Shown: piece by piece, positions 10,567 to 50,700 of the stretch | How positions within the stretch are numbered: the first letter of the stretch is position 1 | Layout: each line of letters starts with the position of its first letter | From: an uncultured Candidatus Saccharibacteria bacterium | GTDB lineage: Bacteria > Patescibacteriota > Saccharimonadia > CAILAD01 > JADZBC01 | Direction of reading: 5' to 3' | Assembly (NCBI GenBank): GCA_964436255.1 | Contig: CAYTBW010000005.1 | Coordinates: forward strand, 6,374 to 70,373 | Length of the DNA: 64,000 nucleotides | The notes under the pieces: model-generated | Database searches by the model: none | The model's input: only the letters and a program-made list of their open reading frames with translations | What the model was told of the DNA's origin: nothing | Program-made: the position numbers and the translations under genes

Positions 10567-10730
10567 AGGGCTAAATAGTTAGCTCCTCGAAACTTGTAGC
10601 CAAATTCTTTGCGGTATGCCTGCTCTAGGTCCGATGGATCTGCTATTTGGGTAAATCTTCCACACATACGATGATTATTCCACCAAGATAAACCATCGTT
10701 TAGCCATCAGCGATCTGATAATATACCAAC

Positions 10731-11444: not shown

Positions 11445-11459
11445 ATTCAGTTATGTGTA

Positions 11460-26178: not shown

Positions 26179-27090
26179 TTAGCTATTATCCGAATGGAAC
26201 TTTTTATGCACGTCCTTCAGGTGCGGGTCGGTAATGTGGGTGTAAACTTGTGTTGTCGAGATGTTGGAATGTCCCAGCAGACCCTGCACGCTACGGATGT
26301 CAGCACCGTTCATAAGTAGGTCCGTGGCAAAGCTATGCCGCAGCGTGTGTGGCGTAACGTGCTTGGTTATGCCAGCTAGCTTGCTGTACTTTTCAACAAT
26401 ACGCTGAATGCTGCGAGTGGTAAGTCGGGTGTATTCGCCGCCTTCGAGCTCGCTTTTGCTACCACTAAAGTGGATAAAGAGAGGGTCGAAGTCGTCTTTT
26501 CGACCCTGCAGGTAATCTGCCAAGATTTGTGTTGCCGAATCGCTCAGGTACACCGGCCGATCTTTTTGGCCTTTACCACGCACACTGAACTCACCACGTT
26601 CTAAGTTAATGCTGTCGCGATTGAGCGCCACCAACTCGGATACACGCAGCCCGGTAGAGAACAGGAGGGCCAGGATGGCACGATCGCGCTTACCAGTTTG
26701 CGTATCAGGCTTCACGGCCTCCATGAGCCTGTGAACTTCGTCTTTGTCCAGGAAGCTTACTTGTGGCCGTTTCGCCACCGCAAGCTCTATCTTGTCAGGG
26801 CTGAGGCTGGTTATGTCACGCTTAACCAAGTAGCGTAGGAAGCTACGCATAGCAATTAGGTGGTAGTTTTGCGTAGTGCGGCTAATACTGCGCCCATCGT
26901 CGGTGACGTAGCGGTTTAGCCATTGGCGCCATTTGCTGATGGTGTCGAGGGTGATTTTATCTACCTTAATCTCACCTGTGAACTCGTCGAAGCGGTTTAG
27001 GTAATGCGAATAGTTCTCGATCGTCTTGAGGCTGCGCCCACGCTCGACCTCTAAGTATTCTAAAAAGTCACCCATGTAGTCGCTAAACAT
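26179..27090 (-). CDS. Tyrosine recombinase XerC/XerD family
   Basis: 303 aa; Xer-type motifs (R...HTLRHSFATDLLMNGADIRSVQGLLGHSNISTTQVYTH). Confidence 0.85.
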   Translation of the reverse strand: MFSDYMGDFLEYLEVERGRSLKTIENYSHYLNRFDEFTGEIKVDKITLDTISKWRQWLNRYVTDDGRSISRTTQNYHLIAMRSFLRYLVKRDITSLSPDKIELAVAKRPQVSFLDKDEVHRLMEAVKPDTQTGKRDRAILALLFSTGLRVSELVALNRDSINLERGEFSVRGKGQKDRPVYLSDSATQILADYLQGRKDDFDPLFIHFSGSKSELEGGEYTRLTTRSIQRIVEKYSKLAGITKHVTPHTLRHSFATDLLMNGADIRSVQGLLGHSNISTTQVYTHITDPHLKDVHKKFHSDNS

Positions 27091-27169
27091 ACTCTTAGCT
27101 TAAGCTGTTTTGGGTGCAACCGCAAGCTGACAAAGTGACAGTTTTCAGGTATAATTAGCCTCGATTTGT

Positions 27170-29059
27170 ATGACTGCCAAAGCTAAAAACACAACTGAAT
27201 ATGACGTGATTGTGGTAGGAGCTGGGCACGCTGGCTGCGAAGCAGCTGTAGCGGCAGCAAAGCTTGGTGCTCGCACCGCGCTGATCACGACTACACTAAC
27301 TAAAGTAGCGACTCTGCCGTGCAACCCTTCCGTAGGTGGACCAGGCAAGGGCCACTTAGTCCGCGAAATCGGCGCCCTGGGCGGCATTATGGCCGATGTG
27401 GTGGACGCGAGCGCCATACAGCTAAAGGAGCTTAATACCTCCAAAGGACCTGCCGTACGGGCTTACAGAGCGCAGATAGACAAGCCAGGCTATAACGACA
27501 ACATGCTAGCGGTTTTGCGAGCCACAAAGGGCTTAGAGCTTATTGAAGACGAGGTGAGCGGGGTAGACGCTGAGCGCGGCAAGATTACGGCCGTACAGAC
27601 CAAGCATCGAGGCGCACTTGCTACTAAATCAGTCATTATCTGTGCTGGTACGTTCCTAAACGGCGAAATTGTGGTGGGGGACAGAGTGGTGCGCAAGGGT
27701 GGGCGGATCGACGAAGACTCCGTTGGTGGGCTCACAGAGTCATTGGTTAAGCTGGGGCTTAAGCACGGTAGGCTCAAGACCGGAACTCCTCCGCGCATAG
27801 CGCGCGACAGCATTGACTACAGTAAGATGGAGCTGGCTCCAGGTACGGCGGGTCCCGTTAGCTTCAGCTATCCAGATAGGGAGGTCTTGCCGCTAGAGAG
27901 CCAAGAGCCTTGCTACCTAACCTACACCACTCCACAGACGCACAAGATTATCATGGATAACCTTAAAAAGTCACCTGTGTTCTCAGGCATGATTAATGAG
28001 CGAGCCCCTAGGAGCTGCCCATCGCTTGATCTGAAGGTGGCGAACTTTCCAGATAAGGAGCGCCACCCGCTATTCATAGAGCCGGAGGGTCGAGTAGGTG
28101 GACCTGACGGTAACCGCATGTACATACAGGGAGGATCCTTGGCCTTCCCCGAGGAAGTGCAGGAAGAAATTATCCACAGCGTGCCCGGTCTAGAACGTGC
28201 ACAGTTTTTAGCCCATGGCTATGCGGTTGTATACGATTATTTTTTGCCCCATCAGCTCAAGCTCACATTGGAAACAAAAGTTGTTCAAGGTTTGTATTTT
28301 GCCGGTCAAATGAATGGAACCACGGGCTACGAAGAAGCAGCCGCTCAGGGGCTAATATCAGGAGTGAATGCCGCTCATAAGGCTCTCGGCAGGCCAGAAT
28401 TTACGTTGGATAGAACGCAGGCTTACATCGGTGTTTTGATTGAGGATTTAACGACCAAAACACACGTGGAGCCGTATAGAATGTTCACCAGCCGCGCCGA
28501 ATATCGCTTGCTGTTGCGCAACGACAATGCCGATGTGCGCCTGACCAGGCTCGGTTACGAGCTAGGCCTTGTCAGCGAAGCGTCGTACATGAGCGTAGAG
28601 GAAAAGCAGGCGGGCATACAAAAAGCCCTAAAGGAGTTGCAACAGGTTAGGGTTCGCCAGGACCATGGCAGGATGCCGCTCTATGAGCTCCTTGCTAGGC
28701 CAGAGGTGAAACTGGCCGACCTAGTAAAGGATCATAATCTAGATATTCCAGATGACTTGATTGACGCCGTAGAGCTCGAGGCCAAATACCATGGTTACTT
28801 TGAGCGTCAGCAGCGTGAGGCGGACAGGTTGCGCGACAAGGCCGGCCAACCAATACCAGATGACTTTGATTACGAAAAGGTTAGGGGACTGCGTAATGAA
28901 GCGCGTAAGCGGCTCGAGGAGATTCAACCAACCACCCTGGCGCAGGCCGGTAAAGTGCAGGGGATTACGCCAGCTGATTTGAGTATTCTGATGATAGCGC
29001 TACATGGTTATCGGCACCGTGGCCAGAGTGCGCGCAAAGCTGCTACAATAACAACTTGA
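27170..29059 (+). CDS. mnmG: tRNA uridine 5-carboxymethylaminomethyl modification enzyme MnmG (GidA)
   Basis: 629 aa; FAD-binding YDVIVVGAGHAGCEAA, full-length GidA. Confidence 0.95.
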   Translation: MTAKAKNTTEYDVIVVGAGHAGCEAAVAAAKLGARTALITTTLTKVATLPCNPSVGGPGKGHLVREIGALGGIMADVVDASAIQLKELNTSKGPAVRAYRAQIDKPGYNDNMLAVLRATKGLELIEDEVSGVDAERGKITAVQTKHRGALATKSVIICAGTFLNGEIVVGDRVVRKGGRIDEDSVGGLTESLVKLGLKHGRLKTGTPPRIARDSIDYSKMELAPGTAGPVSFSYPDREVLPLESQEPCYLTYTTPQTHKIIMDNLKKSPVFSGMINERAPRSCPSLDLKVANFPDKERHPLFIEPEGRVGGPDGNRMYIQGGSLAFPEEVQEEIIHSVPGLERAQFLAHGYAVVYDYFLPHQLKLTLETKVVQGLYFAGQMNGTTGYEEAAAQGLISGVNAAHKALGRPEFTLDRTQAYIGVLIEDLTTKTHVEPYRMFTSRAEYRLLLRNDNADVRLTRLGYELGLVSEASYMSVEEKQAGIQKALKELQQVRVRQDHGRMPLYELLARPEVKLADLVKDHNLDIPDDLIDAVELEAKYHGYFERQQREADRLRDKAGQPIPDDFDYEKVRGLRNEARKRLEEIQPTTLAQAGKVQGITPADLSILMIALHGYRHRGQSARKAATITT

Positions 29060-29077
29060 TACAGAAGGAGAACTAGG

Positions 29078-29569
29078 ATGGAAAGAACGTTAGTTATTGT
29101 TAAGCCTGACGGCGTGGCGCGAGGACTTATTGGCAGGATTATTCAGCGATTTGAAGACGCCGGCATGAAGGTGATCGGCATGAAGCTTATGAATGTGAAC
29201 AAAGAGCACGCCGATGCACATTACGATGGCCTGGCAGAACGCGTGAGCCAGAAGGTCTTTGATGAAGCAACTGCTTACATGTCAGAAGGGCCGGTATTGG
29301 CATTTGTACTTGAAGGCGTTGGCGTGATTGCCGCTGTGCGTAAGATCGCAGGAACTACCGAACCACTCGGCGCAGCACCAGGAACAATTCGCGGTGACTT
29401 TGCGCATGAGAACTACAACTGGGGGGATAGTAACAACAAATCCTTGCGTAACTTGGTACATGCTTCAGGTAATGCCGAGGAAGCTGCTCACGAGATCAAG
29501 CTCTGGTTCGCTGACGAAGATATTCACGACTATAAGACCGTTCATCAGATCCATACCTTTGGTCACTAG
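29078..29569 (+). CDS. ndk: Nucleoside diphosphate kinase
   Basis: 163 aa; NDK motifs (ERTLVIVKPDGV, NLVHASG active His). Confidence 0.95.
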   Translation: MERTLVIVKPDGVARGLIGRIIQRFEDAGMKVIGMKLMNVNKEHADAHYDGLAERVSQKVFDEATAYMSEGPVLAFVLEGVGVIAAVRKIAGTTEPLGAAPGTIRGDFAHENYNWGDSNNKSLRNLVHASGNAEEAAHEIKLWFADEDIHDYKTVHQIHTFGH

Positions 29570-29589
29570 TGATAAGTTCTAATAATACT

Positions 29590-29619
29590 GAAGCCCCGAG
29601 TAATCTCGGGGCTTTTGGT
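29590..29619. terminator. Bidirectional hairpin terminator between ndk and GC-rich island
   Basis: GAAGCCCCGAG-taatc-TCGGGGCTTTTGG; serves ndk (+) and the convergent minus-strand small-gene operon. Confidence 0.65.
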
Positions 29620-29653
29620 TTGCGGGACCGGTCCAGTGCCGTAATCCCGCGCT

Positions 29654-29749
29654 TCAGGTGTCGATGGATCGAAGCAGGGCTCCGATGATCAGGCCGATGA
29701 ATCGACCAATCCGGTAGGCCAGGCGCTGTGAGCATGTCTCAGGCTTCAT
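29654..29749 (-). CDS. 31-aa hydrophobic peptide, 4th gene of coupled operon
   Basis: Not in ORF track; ATG overlaps 3' end of upstream gene, AGGAAG 9 nt upstream; MKPETCSQRLAYRIGRFIGLIIGALLRSIDT single TM. Confidence 0.4.
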   Translation of the reverse strand: MKPETCSQRLAYRIGRFIGLIIGALLRSIDT

Positions 29750-30002
29750 CACGCCAGCTTCCTGGCTCACCTAGCGGTGTTCTGCCCTCAGCCTGATCGC
29801 GTTTGGCCTTGTACTCCGCGGCACCATCGAGCCCTGCCTTGGTCAGGGCATCACCGAAGTCGTATCGGCTTGGTGGTACGCGTCCTTCACGAACGGCCCT
29901 GGTCTTTGCTCTGGCTCGCTCGATCTTGCCGGGAGCCGAGCAGATCAGATCCCACCACGCTTGCGTAAAGTTCGGGTCTTTGCCTGGGTATGGCTGTGTC
30001 AT
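29739..30002 (-). CDS. 87-aa basic soluble protein, 3rd gene of coupled operon
   Basis: ATGA stop/start overlap with upstream gene; MTQPYPGKDPNF...; true start inside longer track ORF 29739..30119. Confidence 0.5.
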   Translation of the reverse strand: MTQPYPGKDPNFTQAWWDLICSAPGKIERARAKTRAVREGRVPPSRYDFGDALTKAGLDGAAEYKAKRDQAEGRTPLGEPGSWRDEA

Positions 30003-30139
30003 CGGTGCCTCGTTGCACTTGGGTTCATGACCGCATCCCATCCGTGGACCAGGGCCCACCCGGCTGCCTTGACCGAGGTGATGCCGATGGCAGCACCCAG
30101 GCCAATTGCTCCGACGCACTTCAGTCCGTTGCGGATCAT
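29999..30139 (-). CDS. 46-aa single-TM peptide with GxxxG motifs, 2nd gene of coupled operon
   Basis: GAGGAGG RBS 5 nt upstream of ATG, ATGA overlap with upstream stop; MIRNGLKCVGAIGLGAAIGITSVKAAGWALV. Confidence 0.55.
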   Translation of the reverse strand: MIRNGLKCVGAIGLGAAIGITSVKAAGWALVHGWDAVMNPSATRHR

Positions 30140-30399
30140 CGGTTCCTCCTCAGCGGACGAGTGATGAGCCACGTCAGGCCGACCGGGGTGAGCACGAAGG
30201 CAGCCCCGAGCACCTGGTCCAGGAAGTGAGGCCCTCCCTGGTACTTGACCTCCTTTGGCCGTGCCGCTTCGGCGTGCTTGCGCTTGCTCGCCAGCGCCAA
30301 GCTGACTGCGCCCGCTGCGGCCGTGAGACCGAGCGAGACTGCCGTTCCAACTGCTTTCAACGTTCCCCCTAGTGGTTCTTGCTCGTGCGCGGATCGCAC
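30136..30399 (-). CDS. 87-aa two-TM membrane protein, 1st gene of coupled operon
   Basis: GTG start; two hydrophobic helices; preceded by AT-rich promoter-like region (TTGAGA-17-AATAAT) and upstream terminator. Confidence 0.5.
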   Translation of the reverse strand: MRSAHEQEPLGGTLKAVGTAVSLGLTAAAGAVSLALASKRKHAEAARPKEVKYQGGPHFLDQVLGAAFVLTPVGLTWLITRPLRRNR

Positions 30400-30530
30400 T
30401 ATGCATGGAGGGTATTATTAAATGAACACGCAAATATCTCAAGCTTAAGTATAAAGTAAACGAAAAAACGACCTAGATATTTCTAAGTCGTTCTGGGGTG
30501 GGCCCTGCGCCACACCCCGCCGCCTGCCGG

Positions 30531-30758
30531 CTAGTGGCCGCAAGCGATGACGCCGTTGGCGTACTGGATGCAGGTCACGACCGTGTCGTGGTGTTGGCTT
30601 CGCTTTACGGCCTCTTTGATGAGGGCCACCACGAGTGTGCCAAGCCAGATGCCGATGATCATGCCGCCGATGCGAGCGAGGCTGATCTCGCCAGACTCTC
30701 CAGCTCGGGTACGACTAGCAGGTGACTTCGCGCCTTGATAGTGCGAAAAAGCTTTCAT
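30531..30758 (-). CDS. 75-aa single-TM protein with Cys-containing C-terminal tail
   Basis: Strong RBS AAGGAGAGG 8 nt before ATG (MKAFSHYQGAK...); terminator hairpin AACGACCTAGA-tat-TTCTAAGTCGTT + T-run downstream (30462-30495). Confidence 0.6.
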   Translation of the reverse strand: MKAFSHYQGAKSPASRTRAGESGEISLARIGGMIIGIWLGTLVVALIKEAVKRSQHHDTVVTCIQYANGVIACGH

Positions 30759-30787
30759 CTCATACCTCTCCTTAGTGAGCGGGCGAA

Positions 30788-30973
30788 TTATCCGTTGATG
30801 AAGTTGATGACGCCGATCGTCACGAACACGGCGAAGGCCAGGAAGAAGATCGCCGTGTAGATGTTGCTGACCTCTACTTCTTCCGGGTGGCCCTTTTTGC
30901 TCTTTCTCCGGAACTCGTACATCCAACCGAACCGGGCCGGGTACTTATAGGTACCCCATTTTGCTTTGGCCAT
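30788..30973 (-). CDS. 61-aa membrane peptide (C-terminal TM)
   Basis: RBS GAGGAGG 5 nt before ATG; MAKAKWGTYKYPARFGWMYEF...IFFLAFAVFVTIGVINFING. Confidence 0.6.
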   Translation of the reverse strand: MAKAKWGTYKYPARFGWMYEFRRKSKKGHPEEVEVSNIYTAIFFLAFAVFVTIGVINFING

Positions 30974-31088
30974 TCAGGCCTCCTCAGTGTTTGGGGCGCC
31001 ATAGGCACCATGTGCAGGAACTTGTGTATTTATAGCATGAAATTAAGATGATTACAAGGGCTAGTATGTTATCTCTACGAGACTTTAA

Positions 31089-31136
31089 TTATCACCTAAA
31101 CTCACAATGCTGGATTATGAACTTGGGTAATGCCAG
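31089..31136. repeat. Junction repeat R3, copy 1 (TTATCACCTAAACTCACAATGCTGGATTATGAACTTGGGTAATGCCAG)
   Basis: ~90% identical to 33365..33413. Confidence 0.8.
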
Positions 31137-31181
31137 GTCTCGACTGGCAACGCTGCACATTGATGCGTGCAGGACATGGGT

Positions 31182-31619
31182 TCAGCTATCAGCCGAAGTC
31201 GATTCCTCGTCAGAGGTCTTTCCTCCGGTCTTCTTCATCTCCAGTAGGGTCCTAAAGATCATGTAGCCGACGAAGAGAATCGCGATGAAGATCATGCGGA
31301 GCAGTACGACTGCTTCGTGCATGTCCTTTACCTCGACCGGTGGTGGTGCCGGTGTCACCGGCTGCAGCCAAGAGGAGCTGCTCGCAGGCGGGCAGGGCTT
31401 CCACTGTTCGGTGCCGGGCACCGGCCCTCGTGGGTCACCTGGTAGCTCGGTCGGGACTAGGGCCTTGGGCACGCATTCTGACTTGGTTGGCGGCGCGGTC
31501 GTCGTGAAGGCCTGTGTCGTTGTTGTCGACGGGGAGCCTTCGCTTGACGCCGCAGAAGCGGGTGAGCCGATCGATGCTCCGAAGAGAATGATCAGCATTA
31601 GAATCAAGATACGCCTCAC
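31182..31619 (-). CDS. Secreted Pro/Thr-rich protein with C-terminal membrane anchor
   Basis: 145 aa; GTG start 9 nt after AAGGAGG RBS; signal peptide MRRILILMLIILFGASIGSPASA, TTTT/PPP-rich linker, C-terminal TM + charged tail. Confidence 0.65.
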   Translation of the reverse strand: MRRILILMLIILFGASIGSPASAASSEGSPSTTTTQAFTTTAPPTKSECVPKALVPTELPGDPRGPVPGTEQWKPCPPASSSSWLQPVTPAPPPVEVKDMHEAVVLLRMIFIAILFVGYMIFRTLLEMKKTGGKTSDEESTSADS

Positions 31620-31623
31620 GGCG

Positions 31624-31716
31624 CCTCCTTAGGGTAGGGATGGGACAAGCTTGAAGAAGCTAGCACCCGAACGTTAGAACTAGACTATAATAGCATAAGT
31701 GTAATAAAAAGTCAAT
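31624..31716 (-). promoter_or_regulatory. Promoter/RBS cassette P1, copy 1 (TTGACT-17-TATTAT ... CCTAAGGAGG)
   Basis: Minus-strand -35 at 31710-31715, -10 at 31687-31692, RBS 31624-31631; near-identical copy at 40899..40975. Confidence 0.65.
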
Positions 31717-31746
31717 GGTACATCACGTGATTGAGATTTGGAAATC
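31717..31746. repeat. Junction repeat R4, copy 1 (GGTACATCACGTGATTGAGATTTGGAAATC)
   Basis: Matches 33336..33365, where it directly abuts R3. Confidence 0.75.
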
Positions 31747-31861
31747 TTACGAGCTCAGTTCGGCTCGTTATACGAAATGAGCCCCACGTTGCCGTGGGGC
31801 TCGAGATCAGCTTGCCCTGCTTGGTGTATCGAGGATCTCATTCACGATACGCAGTTGTTGC

Positions 31862-32482
31862 TCAGGCCTGAGCCTGCTCCTTGTCCTCGACCTGCACCAC
31901 CACGAGGGGCGGGCAGGCCTTGTTCCACCAGGCACTGAAGCGGAACTGCCGCTTCTTGTAGAGGACCCCGATGATCCAGCAGGCTCCGATGATCACCGCT
32001 ATCCCGAGGAAGTACGGCCAGGCGGCCTGCAAGAAGTTGCCGATCGCAAGGAAGGCTTCCCACAGCATGCCGTTGGAAAGCCCGGCCACGATGACGCCAA
32101 CGCCGACGAAGGGGAGTACGTAGTACCAGGGGTTGTGCTTCCGGTACTCGCCCGTGCGCGGGCTGTAGCCCTTCGGAAGGAGCATCTTGTCCGTCGGGAT
32201 GTGTGACGGCAGCTTGTCTTTCTTCTTCGTTGTCTCGGGGGTAGGTGTGTAGCCGAGGAACCATGCGATTGGCACGACCAGGATCCAGAAGAGGAGCATG
32301 ATGATGCCAAGGATCACTGACCCGATGGCCGAAGCCGGAATCATGATCCAGTAGAACTTGCAGGCCTTCGCTCCTTCGATCTTCTCGGGATCCTCCCAGA
32401 AGAAGTTGACGAACCGGTAGCGCCTGCTGTCGGTGGGGATGGTCGAGAGCCGCGTCTTGAGCTTGCTGATGGGGTGGGGCAC
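31862..32482 (-). CDS. Four-TM membrane protein
   Basis: 206 aa; GTG start with GAAAGGCGG RBS; transcribed from minus arm of bidirectional promoter P2a; stem-loop GAGCCCCACGTTGCCGTGGGGCTC downstream. Confidence 0.6.
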   Translation of the reverse strand: MPHPISKLKTRLSTIPTDSRRYRFVNFFWEDPEKIEGAKACKFYWIMIPASAIGSVILGIIMLLFWILVVPIAWFLGYTPTPETTKKKDKLPSHIPTDKMLLPKGYSPRTGEYRKHNPWYYVLPFVGVGVIVAGLSNGMLWEAFLAIGNFLQAAWPYFLGIAVIIGACWIIGVLYKKRQFRFSAWWNKACPPLVVVQVEDKEQAQA

Positions 32483-32536
32483 GATGCCGCCTTTCTTGGG
32501 TGCGTAGCTACCACGGGTTGTGGCGGCATGAACAAC

Positions 32537-32585
32537 GCATATAATACCACGAAACCTTTACAAAAGCAATAGATTATGGTAATAT
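32537..32585. promoter_or_regulatory. Bidirectional promoter cassette P2, copy a
   Basis: Plus TTTACA(32557)-17-TAATAT(32580); minus TTGCTT (comp. 32564-69)-17-TATTAT (comp. 32541-46); drives 31862..32482(-) and 32636..33067(+). Confidence 0.65.
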
Positions 32586-32635
32586 GTACCCCTGCTCTCA
32601 ACCGAAGCAGTTGAACATCACAGGAAGGGGCTACA

Positions 32636-33067
32636 ATGCCCGACGTGGAAGTGGATTATCCCGAAGGCATGCTCGACGACATCACCAACCGTCTCCGCTT
32701 CAAGCGGGACGTCAAGGGGGTGGTCGCGCGTGGCATGGACTGCATCAAGCCGCCCGAGGAAGGTGAGCCGGAGGTCATGACGCGGTACGCCGCCGATCCC
32801 GACGGCAACGTCGGCCTGCTGCTCCGTCCGTACAAGCCCGAGGACGGCAGCGACATCTGGACCCCCATCCAGGTCCGGATCAGCACCTACGCATGGCCCG
32901 ATCGCATGGCCAACCTCGATGACCGCATCTGGGACATCACCCAGGACGTGCGGCGCCTCCTCAACGTCGAGGTCGAGGAGTTCCTGGAGCGCATGTTCCC
33001 CGGCAAGACCAAGCTGGTGGCCGTTCGCTTCGACCCCAAGTTCCCCGGAGCCTGGGCCGAGGCCTGA
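32636..33067 (+). CDS. Acidic soluble protein, unknown function
   Basis: 143 aa; RBS AGGAAGGGG; high-GC codon usage; followed by hairpin + intrinsic terminator module. Confidence 0.6.
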   Translation: MPDVEVDYPEGMLDDITNRLRFKRDVKGVVARGMDCIKPPEEGEPEVMTRYAADPDGNVGLLLRPYKPEDGSDIWTPIQVRISTYAWPDRMANLDDRIWDITQDVRRLLNVEVEEFLERMFPGKTKLVAVRFDPKFPGAWAEA

Positions 33068-33089
33068 TGCTTCAAGGCCAACAAGAGGC

Positions 33090-33166
33090 GGGGTGTCTCT
33101 GGAGCCAAGAGGCTCACACCCCAAGCGCGGTTTGCACAGAAATGTGCGAGCCGCATTTTCATTTGT
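33090..33166 (+). terminator. Terminator module T1, copy a (bulged hairpin + 12-bp stem/GAAA loop/U-tract)
   Basis: GGGGTGT..GAGCC-aaga-GGCTC..ACACCCC then GCGGTTTGCACA-gaaa-TGTGCGAGCCGC-ATTTTCATTTGT. Confidence 0.7.
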
Positions 33167-33298
33167 ACCCATTAATCCCAGGAGGGTAGGTTGCTAGCGC
33201 AACCTCCGTGGCGTGCTTGGTCAAAGCGCAAGCGAACTTGCTTTTGACGCTGCGCGCGCCACTCCACCGAACCTGCGGTTCTCATCCGCCCTAAATAC

Positions 33299-33341
33299 AA
33301 AAGCCTGCTGACTACTAATGTAATCATCAGACTTTTGGTAC
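33299..33341. terminator. Bidirectional hairpin T2, copy a, plus 7-nt copy of tRNA-Arg 3' end
   Basis: AAAAGCCTGCTGA-ctactaatgtaa-TCATCAGACTTTTGG-TACA; duplicate of tRNA-Arg 3' flank at 34426..34469. Confidence 0.65.
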
Positions 33342-33413
33342 ACCACGTAATTGAGATTTGGAACTTATCACCTAAACTCACAATACTTTGATTATGAACT
33401 TAGGTAATGCCAG
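33336..33413. repeat. Junction repeats R4+R3, copy 2 (contiguous)
   Basis: GGTACACCACGTAATTGAGATTTGGAAC|TTATCACCTAAACTCACAATACTTTGATTATGAACTTAGGTAATGCCAG. Confidence 0.8.
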
Positions 33414-33438
33414 TTTTGTGGGTCTGGCAACCATTTGC

Positions 33439-33750
33439 TCAGGCGTGCGAGCGCCTGGTTGGCTTTACTTTGTCAGCGACGCCGTCTGGTCCGTAGAAGA
33501 CCAGCTTACGAAGCCGGGGATGGAAGGTGAAGTTCTCGGCCTCCAGGAACTGCTCGAGAAGTTCGCGGGACATGCCCCGGACGACCAGCTCCTCCGTTCC
33601 TCCGTACATCAGCGCCCACGTCACCTGCATGAACTCAGGTGGCCTGAAGTCGACCACGAGCTTCCAGGGGTAGGTGTCGTCATCGGGCTCGTTGAACTGC
33701 CCGGTGAGGCTGATGAGCTTGATGCCTTCAATTGCTGGGTACTCGGGCAT
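33439..33750 (-). CDS. 103-aa soluble protein, unknown function
   Basis: Strong RBS AGGAGGG 6 nt before ATG; transcribed from minus arm of P2b; preferred over overlapping plus ORF 33388..33843. Confidence 0.6.
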   Translation of the reverse strand: MPEYPAIEGIKLISLTGQFNEPDDDTYPWKLVVDFRPPEFMQVTWALMYGGTEELVVRGMSRELLEQFLEAENFTFHPRLRKLVFYGPDGVADKVKPTRRSHA

Positions 33751-33803
33751 GGCAGCCCTCCTTGTTCAGGACGGGCTAGCCGTCATTACCAACATGAGAA
33801 CCC

Positions 33804-33852
33804 GCATATAATACCACTAAACCTTTACAAATGCAATACTTAGTGGTATGAT
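33804..33852. promoter_or_regulatory. Bidirectional promoter cassette P2, copy b
   Basis: Plus TTTACA(33824)-17-TATGAT(33847); minus TTGCAT-17-TATTAT; ~90% identical to copy a. Confidence 0.65.
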
Positions 33853-33876
33853 GTGGCATCACCCAGTGGTGAAAGA

Positions 33877-34302
33877 ATGACTTCCAGAAGCGATGAAAGG
33901 GTTCTTGAGATGGTTTCAGAAGCAGCTACCTTCCTTACCTCCTCGACGGAGGTGGGCCGGATCTACGGGCAGGGGATGGACGACGAGTGCATGTTCGACA
34001 CCCTCCCTCTGTTCGGGGGTGATCACGTGATCAACGTCCGGACGCGTGGGGCTGAGGCCCAGAGCATCATGATGCCGAGGCGTACCACGCTCCTGGTGCA
34101 GCTCTTCGAGAGGCCGGACACTCTCTGGCTGGCCTCAGTAGTGCGGATCAATGGCGAATGGATGATCATGTACTCGCCGGTCTCGCTCCCAGAAGTCCTG
34201 GACGGAAGGTCTGAGGCACCCGAACTTGCCGTCGTCACAGAGCGACAGCAGGCCGAGGGGGTCACGGACGAGATGGAGCATCGACTCCGACGAGATACGT
34301 GA
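33877..34302 (+). CDS. Acidic soluble protein, unknown function
   Basis: 141 aa from ATG 33877 (track GTG start 33853 lies inside the -10 element); followed by T1 copy b. Confidence 0.55.
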   Translation: MTSRSDERVLEMVSEAATFLTSSTEVGRIYGQGMDDECMFDTLPLFGGDHVINVRTRGAEAQSIMMPRRTTLLVQLFERPDTLWLASVVRINGEWMIMYSPVSLPEVLDGRSEAPELAVVTERQQAEGVTDEMEHRLRRDT

Positions 34303-34309
34303 GTGCGGC

Positions 34310-34386
34310 GGGGTGTCTCTGGAGCCACGAGGCTCACACCCCAATCGCGGTTTGCATAGAAATGTGCAGGCCGCATTTTCATTTGT
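34310..34386 (+). terminator. Terminator module T1, copy b
   Basis: Same structure as copy a; stem substitutions remain paired via G-U/compensatory changes (GCGGTTTGCATA-gaaa-TGTGCAGGCCGC). Confidence 0.7.
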
Positions 34387-34425
34387 GCTCAAAATATACC
34401 TACGGCTCTCATCCGCCCTAAATAC

Positions 34426-34465
34426 AAAAGCCTGCTGACTACTAATGTAATCATCAGGCTTTTGG
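34426..34465. terminator. Bidirectional hairpin T2, copy b (native tRNA-Arg terminator)
   Basis: AAAAGCCTGCTGA..TCATCAGGCTTTTGG immediately 3' of tRNA-Arg on minus strand. Confidence 0.7.
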
Positions 34466-34538
34466 TACCCTGGGAGGGAATCGAACCCCCGACGCTCTCC
34501 TTAGGACGGAGACGCTCTATCCACTGAGCTACCAGGGC
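34463..34538 (-). tRNA. tRNA-Arg (anticodon CCT)
   Basis: 76-nt cloverleaf read by hand: acceptor GCCCTGG/CCAGGGT, D-arm GCTC/GAGC, anticodon stem TCTCC/GGAGA with loop GTCCTAA, T-arm GGGGG-TTCGATT-CCCTC, encoded CCA. Confidence 0.8.
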
Positions 34539-34630
34539 GTATGCTTAACTCTGCTCACTCTACAACGCCAAGGCCCTCAGTGTAAGGGCGTTCGACGCTT
34601 GTTTTCAATCCTCGGCCTACGGCCTGGGCA

Positions 34631-34653
34631 CTGAGCTACCAGGTCGTGTGATG
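34631..34653. repeat. Partial duplicate of tRNA-Arg 5' half (CACTGAGCTACCAGGTCGTGTGATGC)
   Basis: 22/24-nt match to 34522..34544, ~110 bp outside the tRNA; att/pseudo-tRNA remnant. Confidence 0.6.
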
Positions 34654-34733
34654 CTCAGTTATAAAACTAGCAGTTTCGTGACTAATCTAACAGCGTGCAG
34701 AAGTTATTATACACTAGTTATTGTCATGGGGGA

Positions 34734-34762
34734 TTGACAGAAAAGCATAAGTGTTGTATTTT
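34734..34762 (+). promoter_or_regulatory. Sigma70-type promoter (TTGACA-17-TATTTT) for Zn-ribbon gene
   Basis: Consensus -35, 17-bp spacer containing the recurring AGCATAAGTGT motif, TAGGAGG RBS downstream. Confidence 0.55.
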
Positions 34763-34794
34763 TAGGGCGTCCGCAACCTACTTAGGAGGTAGAT

Positions 34795-35484
34795 ATGGAC
34801 TGCACTAATTGCGGTGCCGCGATCCCTCCTAAGGAGGAGGAATTTGCTGGTACCTGTTATGGCTGTGGGGAATCTCTTGGCTTCCAGCCGTTCGTGAGCG
34901 AGACAGATGAAGCCCTCGATCGCCTAGAACAGCGGGTGAGGGAGGCCCGATTCCACGAGTTGGCTGGAGCCGCAGAGGTGGCCGACGACATCGAGCTTGG
35001 TGATCCTGAAGAGGGCATCGACTTCGAGGCGAATCGTCGTTCGCTGGCTGAGACTCACGAGTTTTTCGCCCCCGTACTCCCGATCTTTGGGACCGAGGAA
35101 GATGCTCGTGCCTCTGCCAGCAGGCACCCAACAGCTCGAGACGGCCAAACGCCGACAAGGGCTGTCGCCTACGAATATTATCGGGTTACCGGTAATATAA
35201 GGGGCGCGCCGACGTCGTTCTGGGTCGAGGTCTCGAGTAACGCTAAGGGTGACACCTCGGCTCGTAGCAAGTACTGCCAGTACGTCTCCGAGCAAGGGTG
35301 GAAGCTGTTCGACCGCGAAGGCCGCTTTGAGTGGCCTGAGGACCCCGCGAAGCGACACCCGGCTAAGAGGAGGTCCCTGGATGTATCAGCTTCAACCCAC
35401 GATGAACCAGACGAGTACCTGTATCGGTTGACGAGTAATTCGCCCTTGGTGTTGGGCCGTCGGGAACGGACACAAGGCACATGA
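34795..35484 (+). CDS. Zn-ribbon (CxxC...CxxC) acidic protein, unknown function
   Basis: 229 aa; RBS TAGGAGG 6 nt upstream; N-terminal CTNCG...CYGCG; GC-rich codons; hairpin terminator 35494..35532. Confidence 0.65.
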   Translation: MDCTNCGAAIPPKEEEFAGTCYGCGESLGFQPFVSETDEALDRLEQRVREARFHELAGAAEVADDIELGDPEEGIDFEANRRSLAETHEFFAPVLPIFGTEEDARASASRHPTARDGQTPTRAVAYEYYRVTGNIRGAPTSFWVEVSSNAKGDTSARSKYCQYVSEQGWKLFDREGRFEWPEDPAKRHPAKRRSLDVSASTHDEPDEYLYRLTSNSPLVLGRRERTQGT

Positions 35485-39075: not shown

Positions 39076-39411
39076 TCACTTCGGAGGCCCGAACCTCCAC
39101 TCGCAGTGCAACCAGGCGGCTGTCTTGACCTCGAGTGAGAGGAGGGCTGCTCTGGCGACTTGGTATCCGGCAGGGGAGAGGTCGTACCTAGTAGCGCTCT
39201 CGCCCTTGAACTCGGTGACGATGCCGGCAGATACGCGTTTCTCGAGCAGTGGGTAAAGGGTTCCGTCTGCGACACCCGTTCGAGCCATGATCTCACGGGC
39301 GGTGATGGGCCTAACTGCTTCGATCAACGCTGCGTAGGTCTGGAGCGATTGCAGGCTCTCGTTGATGCGACGCGGCTTGCTTGGCAGCGCATCTGGTTCT
39401 TCTACGTCCAT
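39076..39411 (-). CDS. PadR-family transcriptional regulator
   Basis: 111 aa; RBS AAGGAAA; PadR winged-helix signature (ITAREIMARTGVADGTLYPLLEKRVSAGIVTEF...YDLSPAG). Confidence 0.6.
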   Translation of the reverse strand: MDVEEPDALPSKPRRINESLQSLQTYAALIEAVRPITAREIMARTGVADGTLYPLLEKRVSAGIVTEFKGESATRYDLSPAGYQVARAALLSLEVKTAAWLHCEWRFGPPK

Positions 39412-39472
39412 GCGGTTTCCTTATCCTCGATATACTTGGGTGGAGTCTCTTCTTCAAATTGCTGACGATTGG

Positions 39473-40027
39473 TCAAGCTGGCATAATCCCCGGGATACTC
39501 GTGTATGACACGTATTCGAACAGCTCGTTCCTGGTAAGGGAACTTGGGAATTGATCGAATCCAAGGATGGTGACCTTGATGTCCGATAGGGCAAGGATCT
39601 CCAGGATGGCATTGAATCGCTTGCCGTCGTTCGACGCCAAAACAATCTCGGCAACTCGATCTTGTCTGACGAAGTAGTCGATACATTCGACGATGTCTTC
39701 ATCGACATCGCTGTCTTCGGTGGTGCGCACTTTTGAATACACCCGATAGCCGAGCTTTTTCATAGTCATGACCCACCCGAGCTGCTTGAGGCTCGCATCT
39801 GGGTCGATTGGGCGGTTGACGAAGATCTTGGCGTAAAGCGTGCAGCCTTGCGCGGATGACTTCTCGCGTAGCCACTTCATCAGCATGTCCAGGCGCATGC
39901 GTTCGTTCGCTCTTGGGGCTCTTTCTCCCAGAGTCAAGCCGAAGCTTGCATCGACGTTTGGAGCATCCATTACGAATACAACGAGCTTTTTGCGTGTTGG
40001 CTTGCGGCGTTTCCTTGGTTCAGGCAA
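39473..40027 (-). CDS. NYN/LabA-like (PIN-fold) putative RNase
   Basis: 184 aa; TTG start; NYN motifs VVFVMDAPNV ... IVLASNDGKRF (lvSgDgDF-like). Confidence 0.55.
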   Translation of the reverse strand: MPEPRKRRKPTRKKLVVFVMDAPNVDASFGLTLGERAPRANERMRLDMLMKWLREKSSAQGCTLYAKIFVNRPIDPDASLKQLGWVMTMKKLGYRVYSKVRTTEDSDVDEDIVECIDYFVRQDRVAEIVLASNDGKRFNAILEILALSDIKVTILGFDQFPSSLTRNELFEYVSYTSIPGIMPA

Positions 40028-40136
40028 GGGCCGAACCTTTCATTTCAAGGAGCATATACTGCTCATGGATAGGAACAGCAAAATTATGACACTAAACACA
40101 GGAAACTACAACCACATTGTCTAGTAAATGAAGGGC

Positions 40137-40185
40137 CCCCGGCAGAGCTCCTTCTGGGTAGAAGGGTTGCCCTGCCGGGGGCGTA
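40137..40185 (-). terminator. Hairpin terminator after 40190..40756 gene
   Basis: CCCCCGGCAG-[loop with inner CCTTCT/AGAAGG hairpin]-CTGCCGGGGG. Confidence 0.5.
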
Positions 40186-40189
40186 GTTG

Positions 40190-40756
40190 TCATCGCTCGT
40201 CGAGCGGGTAGTTCCTCTCGTCGAGCGGGTCGTAGCGGCTCTCATCGAAGTCGTACCGGTCGAGGTCGGCCCGGTAGGCCGTCTCCGACCGGTAGGCATC
40301 GAAGGTGTCTTCGATGATCCCACGGATGGCCGCGATGGCCTCGTCCTCGCTGTCACACTTGATGACTTCGCGGTGGTTGCAGTACTGGTTGACCGTCCCC
40401 TTGACGCCGACGAGCAGCGCCTCGTTGTGGCCCAGCACATGCTTGTCGACACCGATGCCGCGGTCCCAGACGTCCATGAAGAGGCGGACGTTGATGGACG
40501 CTGGGTCGAGCGAGTAGCTCGACCTGAAGCGATCGGTGCAGCCACTTGGGCGCCAGTAGGCCTCACGGATGGCGTCAACCTTGCCCCAGGGGATGCGGTC
40601 GAACTCATCCGGCCACAGTTCCTGGGTGTAGATGAAGGTCGACCCGTTCGCTCGAGTGCCCTCCTGGTCGGCCCGGACGGAGGTTGCCGTCTCGAGCTTC
40701 TCGCGGATGACTCGCTCGAAGAGTGCGTAGGTGTTCGGGTCGATGTTGGTCTGCAT
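40190..40756 (-). CDS. 188-aa protein with acidic C-terminal repeats, unknown function
   Basis: ATG at 40756 with AAGGAGCAACACC RBS; overlapping track ORFs 40084..40950(-) and 40187..40972(+) judged spurious GC-rich frames. Confidence 0.6.
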   Translation of the reverse strand: MQTNIDPNTYALFERVIREKLETATSVRADQEGTRANGSTFIYTQELWPDEFDRIPWGKVDAIREAYWRPSGCTDRFRSSYSLDPASINVRLFMDVWDRGIGVDKHVLGHNEALLVGVKGTVNQYCNHREVIKCDSEDEAIAAIRGIIEDTFDAYRSETAYRADLDRYDFDESRYDPLDERNYPLDER

Positions 40757-40853: not shown

Positions 40854-40898
40854 CTACGCTTGTCGCTCCTGTTCCCGAATGGTGTAACGGTACTTCAT
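40854..40898 (-). CDS. 14-aa leader peptide MKYRYTIREQERQA
   Basis: AAGGAGG RBS 7 nt upstream of ATG, directly after P1 promoter copy 2; not in ORF track. Confidence 0.35.
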   Translation of the reverse strand: MKYRYTIREQERQA

Positions 40899-40975
40899 GC
40901 CCCACCTCCTTAGGTAGACTTGAGGGACGTGATGAGGTGTATAATAGCATAAGTATAATAAAAAGTCAATAGCCC
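40899..40975 (-). promoter_or_regulatory. Promoter/RBS cassette P1, copy 2 (TTGACT-17-TATTAT ... CCTAAGGAGG)
   Basis: Minus -35 at comp. 40954-40959, -10 at comp. 40931-40936; near-identical to 31624..31716. Confidence 0.65.
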
Positions 40976-41034
40976 GGCATTCATACAAAGTAAAAACCCC
41001 ACTTATTGAGTGAGGCTCTTACTTTGGCGGGCCC

Positions 41035-41056
41035 GACCGTGGATTACTATAGGTAT
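41035..41056. repeat. Partial direct repeat of tRNA-Asp 3' end (TTGGCGGGCCCGACCG-T-GGATT)
   Basis: 16-nt exact match to comp. of tRNA-Asp 3' end at 41185..41200, ~130 bp away; att-site-like remnant. Confidence 0.65.
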
Positions 41057-41184: not shown

Positions 41185-41261
41185 TGGCGGGCCCGACCGG
41201 ATTCGAACCGGCGATCTCCTCCGTGACAGGGAGGCATGTTAGGCCTCTACACCACGGGCCC
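41185..41261 (-). tRNA. tRNA-Asp (anticodon GTC)
   Basis: 77 nt; acceptor GGGCCCG/CGGGCCC, anticodon stem CCTCC/GGAGG with loop CTGTCAC, T-loop GGTTCGAATCC, encoded CCA. Confidence 0.8.
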
Positions 41262-47521: not shown

Positions 47522-47634
47522 GACTATATGTTGTCATATGACTATAAAAATAACAAGTGGAAAAGTCTTTTTGGGTGGGGAAAAGTGAATAAATATTGTG
47601 TTTTAAGGTGTTGTAGAAAGTGTGCAGAAAGGGT

Positions 47635-47664
47635 TTGCATACTTAAGACGCTTAAGGTTATAAT
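47635..47664 (+). promoter_or_regulatory. Promoter TTGCAT-17-(T)TATAAT for first giant surface-protein gene
   Basis: Near-consensus; places transcription start downstream of track ORF start 47528, supporting ATG 47720. Confidence 0.5.
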
Positions 47665-47719
47665 GAGCCTATATATAACGCTTAAGGTAAGTGCCAGGAA
47701 AAAGACTCCGCACAAAGAG

Positions 47720-50700
47720 ATGGTGAAACCAAAATCAAATCAAACTAGTTTCAAGCGTGTTATTACCTTCTTGCCCAAGAAGGCTCTTCGCGTTGTGCGC
47801 AAAGCCCACCACCACGCCATCACGAAACCTCACACCCACCTGATGAACAAGGGAAAGGTCTACGCTACCTGGCATACAAAAAAGCACCACCACAAAGTTC
47901 ACCTAGGTATAGCTAGTGTATGGGCCATGATTGCCATCGTAGGCGCCCTAGGGCTTACTAACATTGCCAAAGCCTATGACACCTTCACTCAATCTGATTG
48001 GAGCGGTGGGGTTGGAAGCTCAACCACTGACCAGTACTTATATAAGGATAATATTGTTGTTTCTAACGCTGGCGAACTGTCACTTGACTCCACGGTTATA
48101 TCTAATTGGTGCAGTACGGCGAATTGCGATAACAACTGGACTAAGCGCAAAAAGATAGAAATAAGCAATCAGGGCGTGGAAAGAACTGACTATCAGGTTG
48201 AGTTCACAGTATTCGACACTGGTGCCGACATGGATCCGTATTTCCACACCCTACGCTTTACAAACGAAGCTGGCGACACAGATCTCCCATTTACATTCCG
48301 TAATGTTAATGAGGATGTTTCAGCTAAAGTAATGGTAAAGCTGCCGATCTTGTACGGGGCGACTACAACTAGTGTGTATGTGTACTACGGTAACTTGACC
48401 GCAGGCAGCGCGGAAAACTCAAATGCAGTTTATGACTGGTACGACACCTTTAATGGCTCGGCTGGCCAGCTTGACCCTGCCAAATGGCAGGACGTGGCTA
48501 CTGCTGAGGCCAATGGGGTCACGCTGGATGGAAGTGACAACCTAACCGCTGACGGGAGCACTGCCTCAGGCATTAACCTTATGCCAGTTAATAGCGCGAT
48601 TGACCGAAGCGACCCTGCTGTGTATGAAATAAAGCACCTAGGTGTGCAGGCTATTGGTAACAACGCCACCTGCAATGTCGACAATCAATCTTGGTTTGGC
48701 CCAAAGGTGGTTGGGTCGGATGGGCCCGACCAAGATGATTATGGAATCACGTTAGGTTGCAACGAGGGGCAAAATACCTACACTATTAGTGCCTACAGCG
48801 CCGCCGGCGGCAATAGTTGGGCTGGGTCTTATCCTGTGCCTCTTTCTGATAGAAACTTCGGTTCGGGTGGTTTCGGATACAAAGTAGGCTTAAGTGGCGG
48901 GGCGCCCGTGTTGCAGTACTCTACAAGTGGTGGCTCCAGCGGGGCTGACTGGACAGATTTCGAATCAAGCGTGTATCAAATTGGGTCAGTTCCATCTCTA
49001 AACTTCTTTATCACAGCGAGTCCGGGGTCACAGTTCACGATAGATAGTATGTATCGATATAAGGCAGGCGCTAACTACGGTGCCAATGTTGGCTTAGAAG
49101 AATCAATTGGGGGGAGTGTCGGTACTATATCCTCCGCTGCTTTTGACTTAGGCGGCGTTGATTTGGAATCGTGGGCGATAGGTGCTGTTCATTTAACAAC
49201 GTCTGGTAGTGGGGGTAGAGCAGCCCTCAAGGTATATCGCAGCTACGGTGCGGCTGGGCCGTCTGACTTCCTGTATTGTCCAATCGCTCTTGACGGCGAA
49301 ACGCCATCAACCGGTACGGCAGACTGTTTGCTGAATGGGCACGGTGATGGCGCTACATACTTATACTATCAGGTAGTCATGAGCGGGGATGCGGGGAATG
49401 ATTTCAAGGTAGAGGAGGTTAGTCTCGACTACCTTCTGGACGTGACTCCGCCAACTAATCCAACCACTCTTACGATGGCCGAGGGCCCAGGTGGGCAGGC
49501 CATTAGCAATGGCGGTTTTACGAATTTGCGCACAATACCCACTGAGCTAGGTGGGCAGGTCGGTAAGCCTTACTTCGAGTGGAGCGGGGCAGCAGACAAC
49601 GTTGGTGGAGCTGGGGTACTCGGCTACTGCATATACTTTGGTACCGATAATAGCGCCGACCCGCTAACGAGCAAGGGCGCAATTACAGATAATAGCCCGC
49701 TCGATACAAACGGGACTTGCCCCTACGCTATAACTGGCACCAGTTTGGACTTTGCGAATGTCACAACGTCAATTGACCTGACTCAGTTTGCGATTAACGA
49801 TGCTAACTACTACTTACGTATTCGTACACTCGATGCCGTATACAACCCAAGCGTTGCTACAGAGCAGTTTGAGTTCAAGCTAGACTCCACGTACCCCGGG
49901 ATGTTCAGCCCCGTGATATCCGCTGCAACCAGGCAAGGCCCTGAGGTAGAGATCACTTGGCCTACTACGCTTGGGGGTATGTTGCCATTACCGACAGACA
50001 ATGCTTCGGAATTATTTGGCGGGGGCCCTGGCAACCCAAGTGGCGTAGCGGGGATCGCTTGGTGCTCCTCCGACACAGCAGGAGCATTTGCTGGCCACTG
50101 CATGTCTGATCCTAATGCCCCGGTTTGGCACGGAGCGAACGGGTCTGCTGCTGGTAGCTTCCTAGATATGATTAACGGTAACTTTACTTTTGCAGATGCT
50201 TCTGCTGGACAGCTCATTGCAGACCTGAGCGAGGAGCCCACTACTGACTTTAACGGCCCGAACACTATGTATATCGCTGTATTCGACAACGCTGGGAACT
50301 TTACTAACATGCCGGCCAGTGGCTTTAATGTAGGCAATAACAAGTTCGTCGTCTTCAACAACACCCCGCCATCTGCCCCACAGAACTTGGCTGCTACGCC
50401 AACCACTAACACTGCCAACAGCTTTGCCTTCAGCTGGGATGCTCCGAGCGACCTCGTAGGCCTGACCCAGAACGCTAACTACTGCTGGAGTGTAAACGTT
50501 CTGCCAAACGCCAACAATTGTACCTATGCCGGAGTAGGGGTAGAGAACCTAAGCGCTGACGCTTACGCTACTCAGCCAGGTCTCAACACGATGTATGTGG
50601 TAGCCAAAGACGAAGCTGGCAACATAGACTACGCTAACTATGCATCTACTACCTTTACCGCTAACACCTCAGCTCCTGGCGCTCCGCGCAACCTCGAAGT

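Follow-up and report, generated by a model that had tools for sequence, protein, structure and literature searches.

Island A is a 5-kb stretch of a Patescibacteria chromosome, located within the 64,000-nucleotide piece of DNA that is here called the window. It extends from ndk (29078-29569) to a tRNA-Arg(CCT) gene (34463-34538, minus strand), has a higher G+C content than its surroundings and is packed with small genes. Within it, at 31089-31746, two short repeats, R3 and R4, enclose a gene for a 145-residue protein (g145) together with its promoter, P1. This R3...R4 segment probably spans two unit boundaries of an additive island that is anchored at the tRNA gene, varies from strain to strain and is composed of small promoter/gene/terminator units. 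Each unit comprises a promoter, one or two genes of unknown function, and a hairpin or terminator module. The series R3, gene, P1, R4 would then be the body of an older g145 unit followed by the start of the next one, U1.

A sequence-only reading of this DNA had taken promoter and gene for a cassette inserted exactly at an R4|R3 junction. The repeats themselves are real. R3 occurs at 31089-31137 and 33365-33413 (45 of 49 positions identical, i.e., 91.8% over 49 nt), R4 at 31716-31743 and 33336-33363 (26 of 28), and each has two copies in the window. It is also correct that R4 and R3 are contiguous at 33336-33413, with a single C between them, and that 578 bp with gene and promoter separate them at 31089-31746. 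The insertion, however, is not borne out. All copies are direct; on the plus strand, R4 precedes R3 at the contiguous site, while the other site has R3 on the left and R4 on the right of the gene, the reverse of what an insert between R4 and R3 would yield. With this opposite order, the gene does not lie inside a split R4|R3 site. Nor did the boundaries of 31089-31746 reveal a target-site duplication or a terminal inverted repeat (7-nt seed). The gene between R3 and R4 is a matter of two adjoining unit boundaries, not of a split repeat site.

The evidence comes from relatives, in which the same locus was compared in independent assemblies; among them are species B (L027-29, ~82% identical) and species C (L022-24, ~80%). 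The layout of the window is repeated in the independent assemblies L001/L013, L012, L003, L004 and L002 and is, therefore, no assembly artefact; a Patescibacteria contig from a metagenome-assembled genome (MAG) is 97% identical to the window over 29000-33410. In L006/L008 (~93% identical), a P1-g146-R3 cassette is present, U1, the second unit U2 and R4 are absent, and P1 runs straight into tRNA-Arg (...AAAAAGTCAA TGGTAC CCTGGGAGGG). In species B, R4 with its hairpin Y, a terminator, g206 and the module D13 adjoins the tRNA, and P1 and g145 are absent. Species C has R3-g103-D13 without a recognisable R4, and its island A lacks P1 and g145 as well. The existence of P1-gene-R3 without R4 in L006 and of R4-g206 without P1 and g145 in species B means that R3 and R4 at 31089-31746 belong to two different neighbouring units: R3 at 31089 is part of the g145 unit, R4 is part of the g206 unit.

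The anchor of the island is the CCA end of tRNA-Arg(CCT), a gene recognised by both ARAGORN and Rfam. Compared with L006, the window holds an extra 2,747 bp (31716-34462), bounded by TGGTAC at 31716 and at 34463, a hexamer with which R4 starts and which also forms the CCA end of the tRNA; the 'empty' state of this comparison comes from a different strain, the said ~93% identical one. The inserted DNA thus starts exactly at the CCA end. Among close relatives, in which the neighbouring 229-residue protein (g229) is identical or close, six different sequences abut this end. Species B has a 15/16-nt copy of the tRNA-Arg 3' end 2.06 kb downstream, beyond the g206 unit and a structured element, E150; in species C such a 15/16-nt copy lies beyond E150 alone. 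Duplicated tRNA 3' ends are what site-specific integration into tRNA genes classically leaves behind. For U1+U2, the direct tRNA repeat at the distal end is TGGTAC only (6 nt, or 7/8 with G.GTACCA).

The same spot is variable in further ways. L003 (15368-15491) has a third D7 copy, followed by TGGTAG and unrelated sequence. L014/L015 (L014 1-122) and L019 (1-32) show still other sequences abutting the CCA end. Contig breaks are frequent within D7 and at the tRNA, which is consistent with strain heterogeneity there.

The two tandem units beside the tRNA are made of the same modules and of different genes. U1 (31716-33335) consists of R4, the Y hairpin with a terminator, g206 (31862-32482, minus), the predicted promoter module D13 (32536-32587), g143 (32636-33067, plus), the putative terminator D5 (33087-33171), a degenerate tRNA remnant with an E150 core (33172-33270) and another putative terminator, D7 (33271-33335). 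U2 (33336-34462) consists of R4 (33336-33363), R3 (33365-33413), a short hairpin (hp1), g103 (33439-33750, minus), D13 (33803-33854), g141 (33877-34302, plus), D5 (34307-34391) and D7 (34398-34462). Self-comparison yields D13, D5 and D7 as two-copy modules (D7 matching over 33271-33341/34398-34468), and D13 has promoter-like sites on both strands. U1 and U2 have D13, D5, D7 and R4 in common; their genes are unrelated. At the junctions, D7 of U2 meets the tRNA, D7 of U1 meets R4 of U2, and R4 of U1 meets P1.

The island genes lack known families: searches of Pfam, PHROGs, PADLOC and NCBIfam returned no significant family for any island ORF (open reading frame), and Rfam matched nothing but the tRNA over 30900-34700. 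The product of g206 is not an orphan, though. HMMER, run over the full library, yielded 70 cluster representatives of ~180-210 aa with 26-45% identity, a family of uncharacterised multi-pass membrane proteins. E150 is a strongly structured element of ~150 nt (RNA fold z = -4.3 and -3.5) without an Rfam match, found at 33172-33335 of the window, in L022 (9660-9826) and in L027 (2049-2217). It always lies between a GTACCA end, be it of tRNA-Arg or of R4, and a remnant of the tRNA-Arg 3' end. In species C, direct repeats of the tRNA end, 16 nt long, enclose it. E150 may be a miniature element, or else two att arms that have fused.

R4 is the module that closes the g206 unit distally; its contiguity with R3 is simply how U2 normally ends. 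The copy at 31716-31743 (minus) is the terminal module of U1, and its last 6 nt, GTACCA, equal the 3' end of tRNA-Arg. It is accompanied by the Y hairpin (31749-31768) and the predicted intrinsic terminator of g206 (31802-31779; module 31745-31802, minus). In U1, Y and this terminator are the structural counterparts of the two hairpins behind g145 (hp2 and hp1, see below), the order being terminator hairpin, Y hairpin, R4. Against species B, R4 is 96% conserved, versus 85% for g206, and it moves together with Y, terminator and g206 in the window clade and in species B. R4 always ends in GTACCA, whereafter comes P1 (window), D7 (U2/U1 junction) or E150 (species B). The GTACCA end of tRNA-Arg has the same three partners: P1 in L006, D7 in the window and E150 in species C.

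Several other identities were considered for R4 and its junction. R4 is not a displaced tRNA 3' fragment: only its last 6-8 nt match tRNA-Arg, a T-arm geometry is missing, and ARAGORN finds nothing. R4-R3 as a cruciform or palindrome was dismissed, as its DNA folds no better than shuffled sequences (z ~ -1.3), and a dif/Xer site was dropped, since inspection by eye revealed no convincing 11-6-11 arrangement. An IS200/IS605-like element, with hairpin ends and insertion 3' of a short target, was likewise rejected, as copies are found at the tRNA locus only and neither tnpA nor tnpB is present.

R3, in turn, appears to be an RNA structure. The copy at 31089-31137 (minus), also called hp2, forms a conserved 17-bp hairpin 3' of g145. 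The consensus fold of seven copies has 17 pairs, of which four are G.U pairs that are valid only in minus-strand RNA, and shows one compensatory change from AU to GC. With a covariance model, R3 reaches 81-101 bits on the minus strand versus 13-20 bits on the plus strand; a search of the window and of nine loci with this model brought up no additional copy. R3 is invariably found beyond the stop codon of a gene on the minus strand, and these genes are of five kinds: g145, g103, one alternative ORF each in L013 and L003, and a g61-like gene in species B. Between the stop codon of g145 and R3 sits hp1 (31132-31150, minus), a short GC hairpin whose stem varies in sequence with pairing kept (TGCCAG/CTGGCA, TGCTGG/CCAGCA, GGCGGGAGC/GCTCCCGCC). 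Judged from these folds, R3 and hp1 together may form the 3'-end module of the transcripts of minus-strand cassette genes and act as a terminator or stabiliser.

The gene that precedes R3 in the segment, g145 (31182-31619, minus), starts with GTG and has an AAGGAGG ribosome-binding site (RBS) 4 nt upstream. According to translation and hydropathy, its product of 145 aa has a signal peptide (RR...ASA|A), a middle part rich in Pro, Thr and Ser, and a C-terminal membrane helix with a charged tail. Among 5.8 billion proteins, its homologues make up only one cluster, of 99% identity. Pfam, PHROGs and PADLOC returned no significant family, and tblastn against plasmids gave nothing.

The P1 cassette ahead of g145 (31620-31715, minus) comprises a predicted sigma-70-like promoter (31715-31687), a 66-nt leader and the RBS (31624-31633); the promoter reads TTGACT-17-TATTAT with a TG and matches 10 of 12 consensus positions. 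A second copy lies at 40855-40970 (minus), in what we call island B, with the promoter core at 40969-40940, the RBS at 40914-40905 and a 14-codon leader ORF at 40899-40855. The similarity of the two is genuine and shorter than believed. The cores, 31686-31716 and 40940-40970, agree in 30 of 31 positions, and no such match was seen in 100 shuffles; a near-identity over 60-77 nt does not hold. Promoter core and CCTAAGGAGG are common to both copies, whereas the leaders differ in length and sequence, and the CCTAAGGAGG RBS is largely a consensus Shine-Dalgarno sequence (TAAGGAGG is present six times in the window). Copy 2 is indeed followed by a different gene, g188 (40190-40756, minus; 188 aa), but the ATG after its RBS opens only the 14-codon ORF, and g188 has an RBS of its own. 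Of the idea that islands A and B form one element family, the common 31-nt promoter core is what survives; no other module is common to both.

Island B nevertheless lends substance to another part of that sequence-only reading, the recombining promoter-gene unit: whether a P1-headed cassette is there, where it lies and which ORF it carries does differ between relatives, even though insertion at R4|R3 is not supported. The cassette with g188 closes with a GC-rich module, a putative terminator (40125-40198, minus), which forms a strong GC hairpin followed by a T-rich tail. In L012, L013 and L022 the place of g188 is taken by an unrelated 157-aa ORF (g157), behind which L013 and L022 have the same terminator. 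Between the window and L001/L013, homology stops at the start codon after the leader and resumes at the terminator, 40125-40198. The entire P1 cassette of island B is absent from L014/L015 and from species B. In species C it follows two other genes and appears, on comparison with species B (L022 vs L027), as a clean insertion of ~800 bp between a terminator and the next promoter. That P1-headed promoter-ORF-terminator units do recombine, in a moron-like way, is thus supported in part.

The 14-codon ORF MKYRYTIREQERQA (40855-40899, minus), which directly follows the RBS of copy 2 in a conserved leader, is itself conserved in L001, apart from a synonymous change, and occurs in a variant form in species C; possibly, it is a leader peptide that regulates the variable gene downstream. 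Island B, too, is close to a tRNA gene. An exact 14-nt copy of the 3' end of tRNA-Asp(GTC) (41185-41261, minus), GGTCGGGCCCGCCA, lies at 41025-41038, ~146 bp downstream, and P1 copy 2 starts 55 nt beyond it, after a terminator. Because in species C tRNA-Asp directly joins the sequence that in the window follows the copy, the 146 bp look like a miniature insertion or an integration scar.

The genes within the units are exchanged precisely. In U2, the ORF between R3/hp1 and D13 is g103 in the window; those of L001/L013 and L003 are unrelated to it and to each other, with breakpoints at the conserved modules. g75 (30531-30758) is replaced in L006. Throughout, the breakpoints of such replacements are found at start or stop codons and at the conserved flanking modules. 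Larger blocks are affected as well. Island A (29800-33000) and the segment of tRNA-Arg and g229 (34600-35400) are 99.8-100% identical to L012/L013, while the adjacent xer and mnmG genes are only 81-90% identical between the same genomes; g103 is 90% identical to its counterpart in species C, versus 80-82% for ndk and g229. Such identity, far above that of the neighbouring core, together with the ORF swaps, indicates horizontal exchange, recent in the case of the island block, both in blocks and ORF by ORF. The locus thus has what defines an additive island: a fixed location beside a tRNA gene, a cassette content that differs by strain, and cassettes that are more similar than the core genome.

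How such an island could arise may be envisaged as follows. Site-specific recombination at the CCA end of the tRNA would bring units in or take them out, with G.GTACCA or the 16-nt tRNA 3' end as the core. A newcomer would push the older units inward, and R4 would be left beside whatever had previously followed the tRNA. The recombinase would act in trans. Later, homologous recombination between the conserved promoter and terminator modules could swap ORFs and move blocks between lineages. More speculatively, and with considerable doubt, the units of 1-2 kb that end in R4...GTACCA and start with D7 or E150 might represent a Patescibacteria family of integrase-less miniature integrative elements that are specific for the CCA end of tRNA-Arg(CCT), are mobilised in trans and each deliver a promoter-ORF-terminator module.

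A number of observations weigh against this picture of a tRNA-anchored additive island. Profile searches found no recombinase or integrase domain in any ORF of islands A or B. Since the islands encode no such enzyme, any recombinase would have to come from elsewhere, and the enzymatic step is an inferred one. A Xer-like recombinase gene that all relatives have conserved lies outside the islands (26179-27090), and so does that of a large serine recombinase (5705-7300). An extrachromosomal carrier or circular form was not detected either: scans of viral contigs with R3, P1, R4, D7, D5 and D13 gave no related match, the single R4 match (L009) having unrelated flanks and being due to chance. A metagenome scan with an R3 20-mer gave one unrelated, AT-rich chance match (L010), and a scan of a genome collection with P1 returned only the 97%-identical MAG contig. 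With 6 nt (7/8), the repeat common to R4 and the tRNA falls short of the length of a classical tRNA att site and is also compatible with a microhomology-mediated deletion; the 2,747-bp difference to L006 may be a gain or a loss. Neither hp1 nor hp2 has a U tract, and the promoters and terminators throughout the island are assigned from sequence features. The 28 nt left of R3 (31061-31088, called X) match R4 in 13 of 28 positions (p ~0.1), which is not significant, so that a former R4 of the g145 unit is only suggestive; L006 keeps GTTCCAAA after R3, and the idea of a decayed R4 stays a suggestion.

Other explanations have to be weighed. A mobile P1-RBS-gene cassette that split a pre-existing R4|R3 site would explain why R3 and R4 flank the gene, why a contiguous copy exists 1.6 kb away, and why P1-g145-R3 is lineage-specific, with species B and C lacking it. 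The order R3...R4, the lack of target duplication and of terminal inverted repeats, P1-g146-R3 without R4 in L006/L008, and R4-Y-g206 without P1 and g145 in species B leave this idea with practically no credit. Another variant is circular permutation. A mini integrative element R3-g145-P1-R4, with R4|R3 as the attP-like junction of its circle, would have integrated into a site X|Y, and 33336-33413 would be a resident attP-like site. The geometry, X|R3...R4|Y versus R4|R3, is indeed that of attP x attB, and X and Y have the hexamer TACGAG in common near the junctions. But R4 and the g145 cassette each occur without the other (species B, L006), R4 is always followed by Y, terminator and g206 (100% identity in close strains, 89% in species B), and X is joined to Y in no genome; the TACGAG copies, being offset by 8 nt and 5 nt, are by our estimate a chance match at the level of a few percent. 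This variant, therefore, is very improbable. No better stands an integron-like array devoid of an integrase (a cluster of attC sites lacking integron integrase, CALIN). R3 is an imperfect hairpin 3' of cassette genes, its arms (ACCYAAG...TTTAGGT) vaguely resemble RYYYAAC/GTTRRRY, and island A has several small genes on the same strand. The conserved AAC/GTT triplets, however, are absent from the arms. The hairpin of R3 measures ~42 nt, and attC sites are longer than that. Its G.U pairs argue for an RNA rather than a folded-DNA element, and there are only two R3 copies in 64 kb. The cassettes have promoter-like sites of their own, the units hold divergent gene pairs, and there is no integron integrase, the Xer-like protein reaching 145 bits versus a subfamily cut-off of 265. 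A transposon, insertion sequence (IS) or miniature inverted-repeat transposable element (MITE) was rejected as well, for the ends of R3...R4 show neither terminal inverted repeats nor a target-site duplication, and each repeat has two copies in 64 kb.

The explanation that deserves more attention dispenses with any site-specific step. Imported DNA would recombine homologously via the flanking core genes and the conserved regulatory modules, L006 would be a deletion at the TGGTAC microhomology, and the sharp junctions at the tRNA would merely mark the limit of purifying selection. The ORF-precise swaps between conserved modules and the 100% identical island block in diverged backgrounds fit it well, as do the lack of a recombinase in the islands and a repeat of only 6 nt; the type IV pilus genes of the window could serve DNA uptake. 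It accounts poorly for the 15/16-nt duplicates of the tRNA-Arg 3' end in species B and C and for the exact 14-nt duplicate of tRNA-Asp. Nor does it readily explain why the R4 GTACCA end and the tRNA end have the interchangeable partners P1, D7 and E150, or why the R4-terminated g206 unit occurs in two contexts, beside P1 in the window clade and beside E150 plus tRNA remnant in species B. We consider it a possible but rather unlikely sole cause and retain the tRNA-anchored additive island, with its site-specific entry, as the probable explanation.

The surroundings of the islands are ordinarily chromosomal: mnmG, ndk, type IV pilus genes, a PrsA-like peptidyl-prolyl isomerase gene and dinB are all in the window. 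The serine recombinase at 5705-7300 (Resolvase, Recombinase and zinc ribbon domains) lies beside ychF and borders a stretch of lower G+C content (7300-12000, 41-45%). Near it, at 8041-8145, a 21-nt inverted repeat pair is found, and another integrated element is possible. In the window, 80 bp (27090-27170) separate the Xer-like gene from mnmG; in relatives this gap holds a gene for 215 aa (L013 1583-2230), 109 aa (L006 7446-7775) or 206 aa (L022 1800-2420), and is thus a second small variable spot, directly beside a tyrosine recombinase. At 39076-40027 a gene for an NYN-domain protein (184 aa) and one for a TrmB-like winged-helix protein (111 aa) are separate; in L001 (1617-2480) they appear fused into one gene of 287 aa. 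Finally, two tandem paralogous giant genes, 47528-52189 (1553 aa) and 52285-56688 (1467 aa), are 74-86% identical in nucleotides over long stretches and give rise to the repeat families D1-D4, spaced by ~4.5 kb.

The locus reminds of several known systems. Like integron cassettes, the units are single-gene cassettes that end in a hairpin-forming site and are added at one anchor, the newest being nearest to it; unlike them, they come with no IntI and no attC signature, have putative promoters of their own, and the anchor is a tRNA 3' end instead of attI. CIMEs (cis-mobilisable elements) and other integrase-less elements, such as those of the Streptococcus ICESt1 family, are flanked by att sites, accreted in tandem at gene 3' ends and presumed to be mobilised in trans. 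Here, too, integrase-less DNA with att-like repeats at its bounds has accreted in tandem beside a tRNA gene and would be mobilised in trans; yet no cognate integrative and conjugative element (ICE) or integrase was identified, the core is only 6-16 nt, and the units are much smaller.

Phage 'morons', reportedly described by Juhala et al. in 2000, are promoter-gene-terminator units inserted between genes. The likeness is close: in genomes that are otherwise collinear, self-contained promoter-ORF-terminator units are found after a terminator and ahead of the next promoter, with no target duplication. Here, single ORFs are framed by a predicted promoter and terminator of their own, and units are present or absent between the same neighbours (L022 vs L027; the window vs L014/L015). 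Unlike morons, our cassettes reside in chromosomal core flanks, not in a prophage, and cluster at tRNA 3' ends; no phage genes, PHROG matches or matches in phage or viral collections were found.

Two types of tRNA-associated islands are close as well, and the position of newer arrivals next to the tRNA agrees with what is described for both. Additive flexible islands at tRNA genes show partial tRNA repeats and near-identical cassettes across species (PMC4898812). As in Alteromonas (PMC4898812, PMC3698932), the island uses the same tRNA-side spot in all strains with cassettes differing in number and nature, has partial tRNA direct repeats, and contains near-identical cassettes despite diverged cores. 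It differs in that its units are tiny (0.65-2 kb, one or two genes), that conserved promoter and terminator modules permit ORF-precise swapping, that the host belongs to the Patescibacteria (Candidate Phyla Radiation, CPR), and that no integrase is seen in or beside the island. In the tycheposon islands of Prochlorococcus, new arrivals push older elements further in, integration takes place at the 3' parts of tRNA genes, and degenerate remnants and partial tRNAs are scattered about, as here (10.1101/2020.12.28.424599). Tycheposons, however, have their own tyrosine recombinase and replication modules and measure kilobases to tens of kilobases; our units encode neither. Islands of this kind, then, are known; what is new is their occurrence in this host group and in so compact and modular a form.

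Patescibacteria have very small genomes and few recognised mobile elements, and by which route they exchange surface and accessory genes is unclear. The locus offers a concrete one: very small cassettes that provide for their own expression accumulate at the 3' end of a tRNA gene, ORFs can be swapped precisely by way of the conserved promoter and terminator modules, and island blocks move between lineages whose core is only 81-90% identical. For now, the locus is a well-documented case of something already known, in a host group that is new. If recombination in trans proved true, it would be a compact natural system of cassette delivery and a marker of strain-level variation in these uncultivated bacteria. 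If the units were indeed a family of miniature integrative elements, one would deal with an integron-like, tRNA-anchored cassette system, in which the tRNA 3' end takes the role of attI and the hairpin-bearing 3' module that of the cassette-borne site. Such a system would mean a continual re-stocking of small surface and membrane proteins in host-dependent bacteria.

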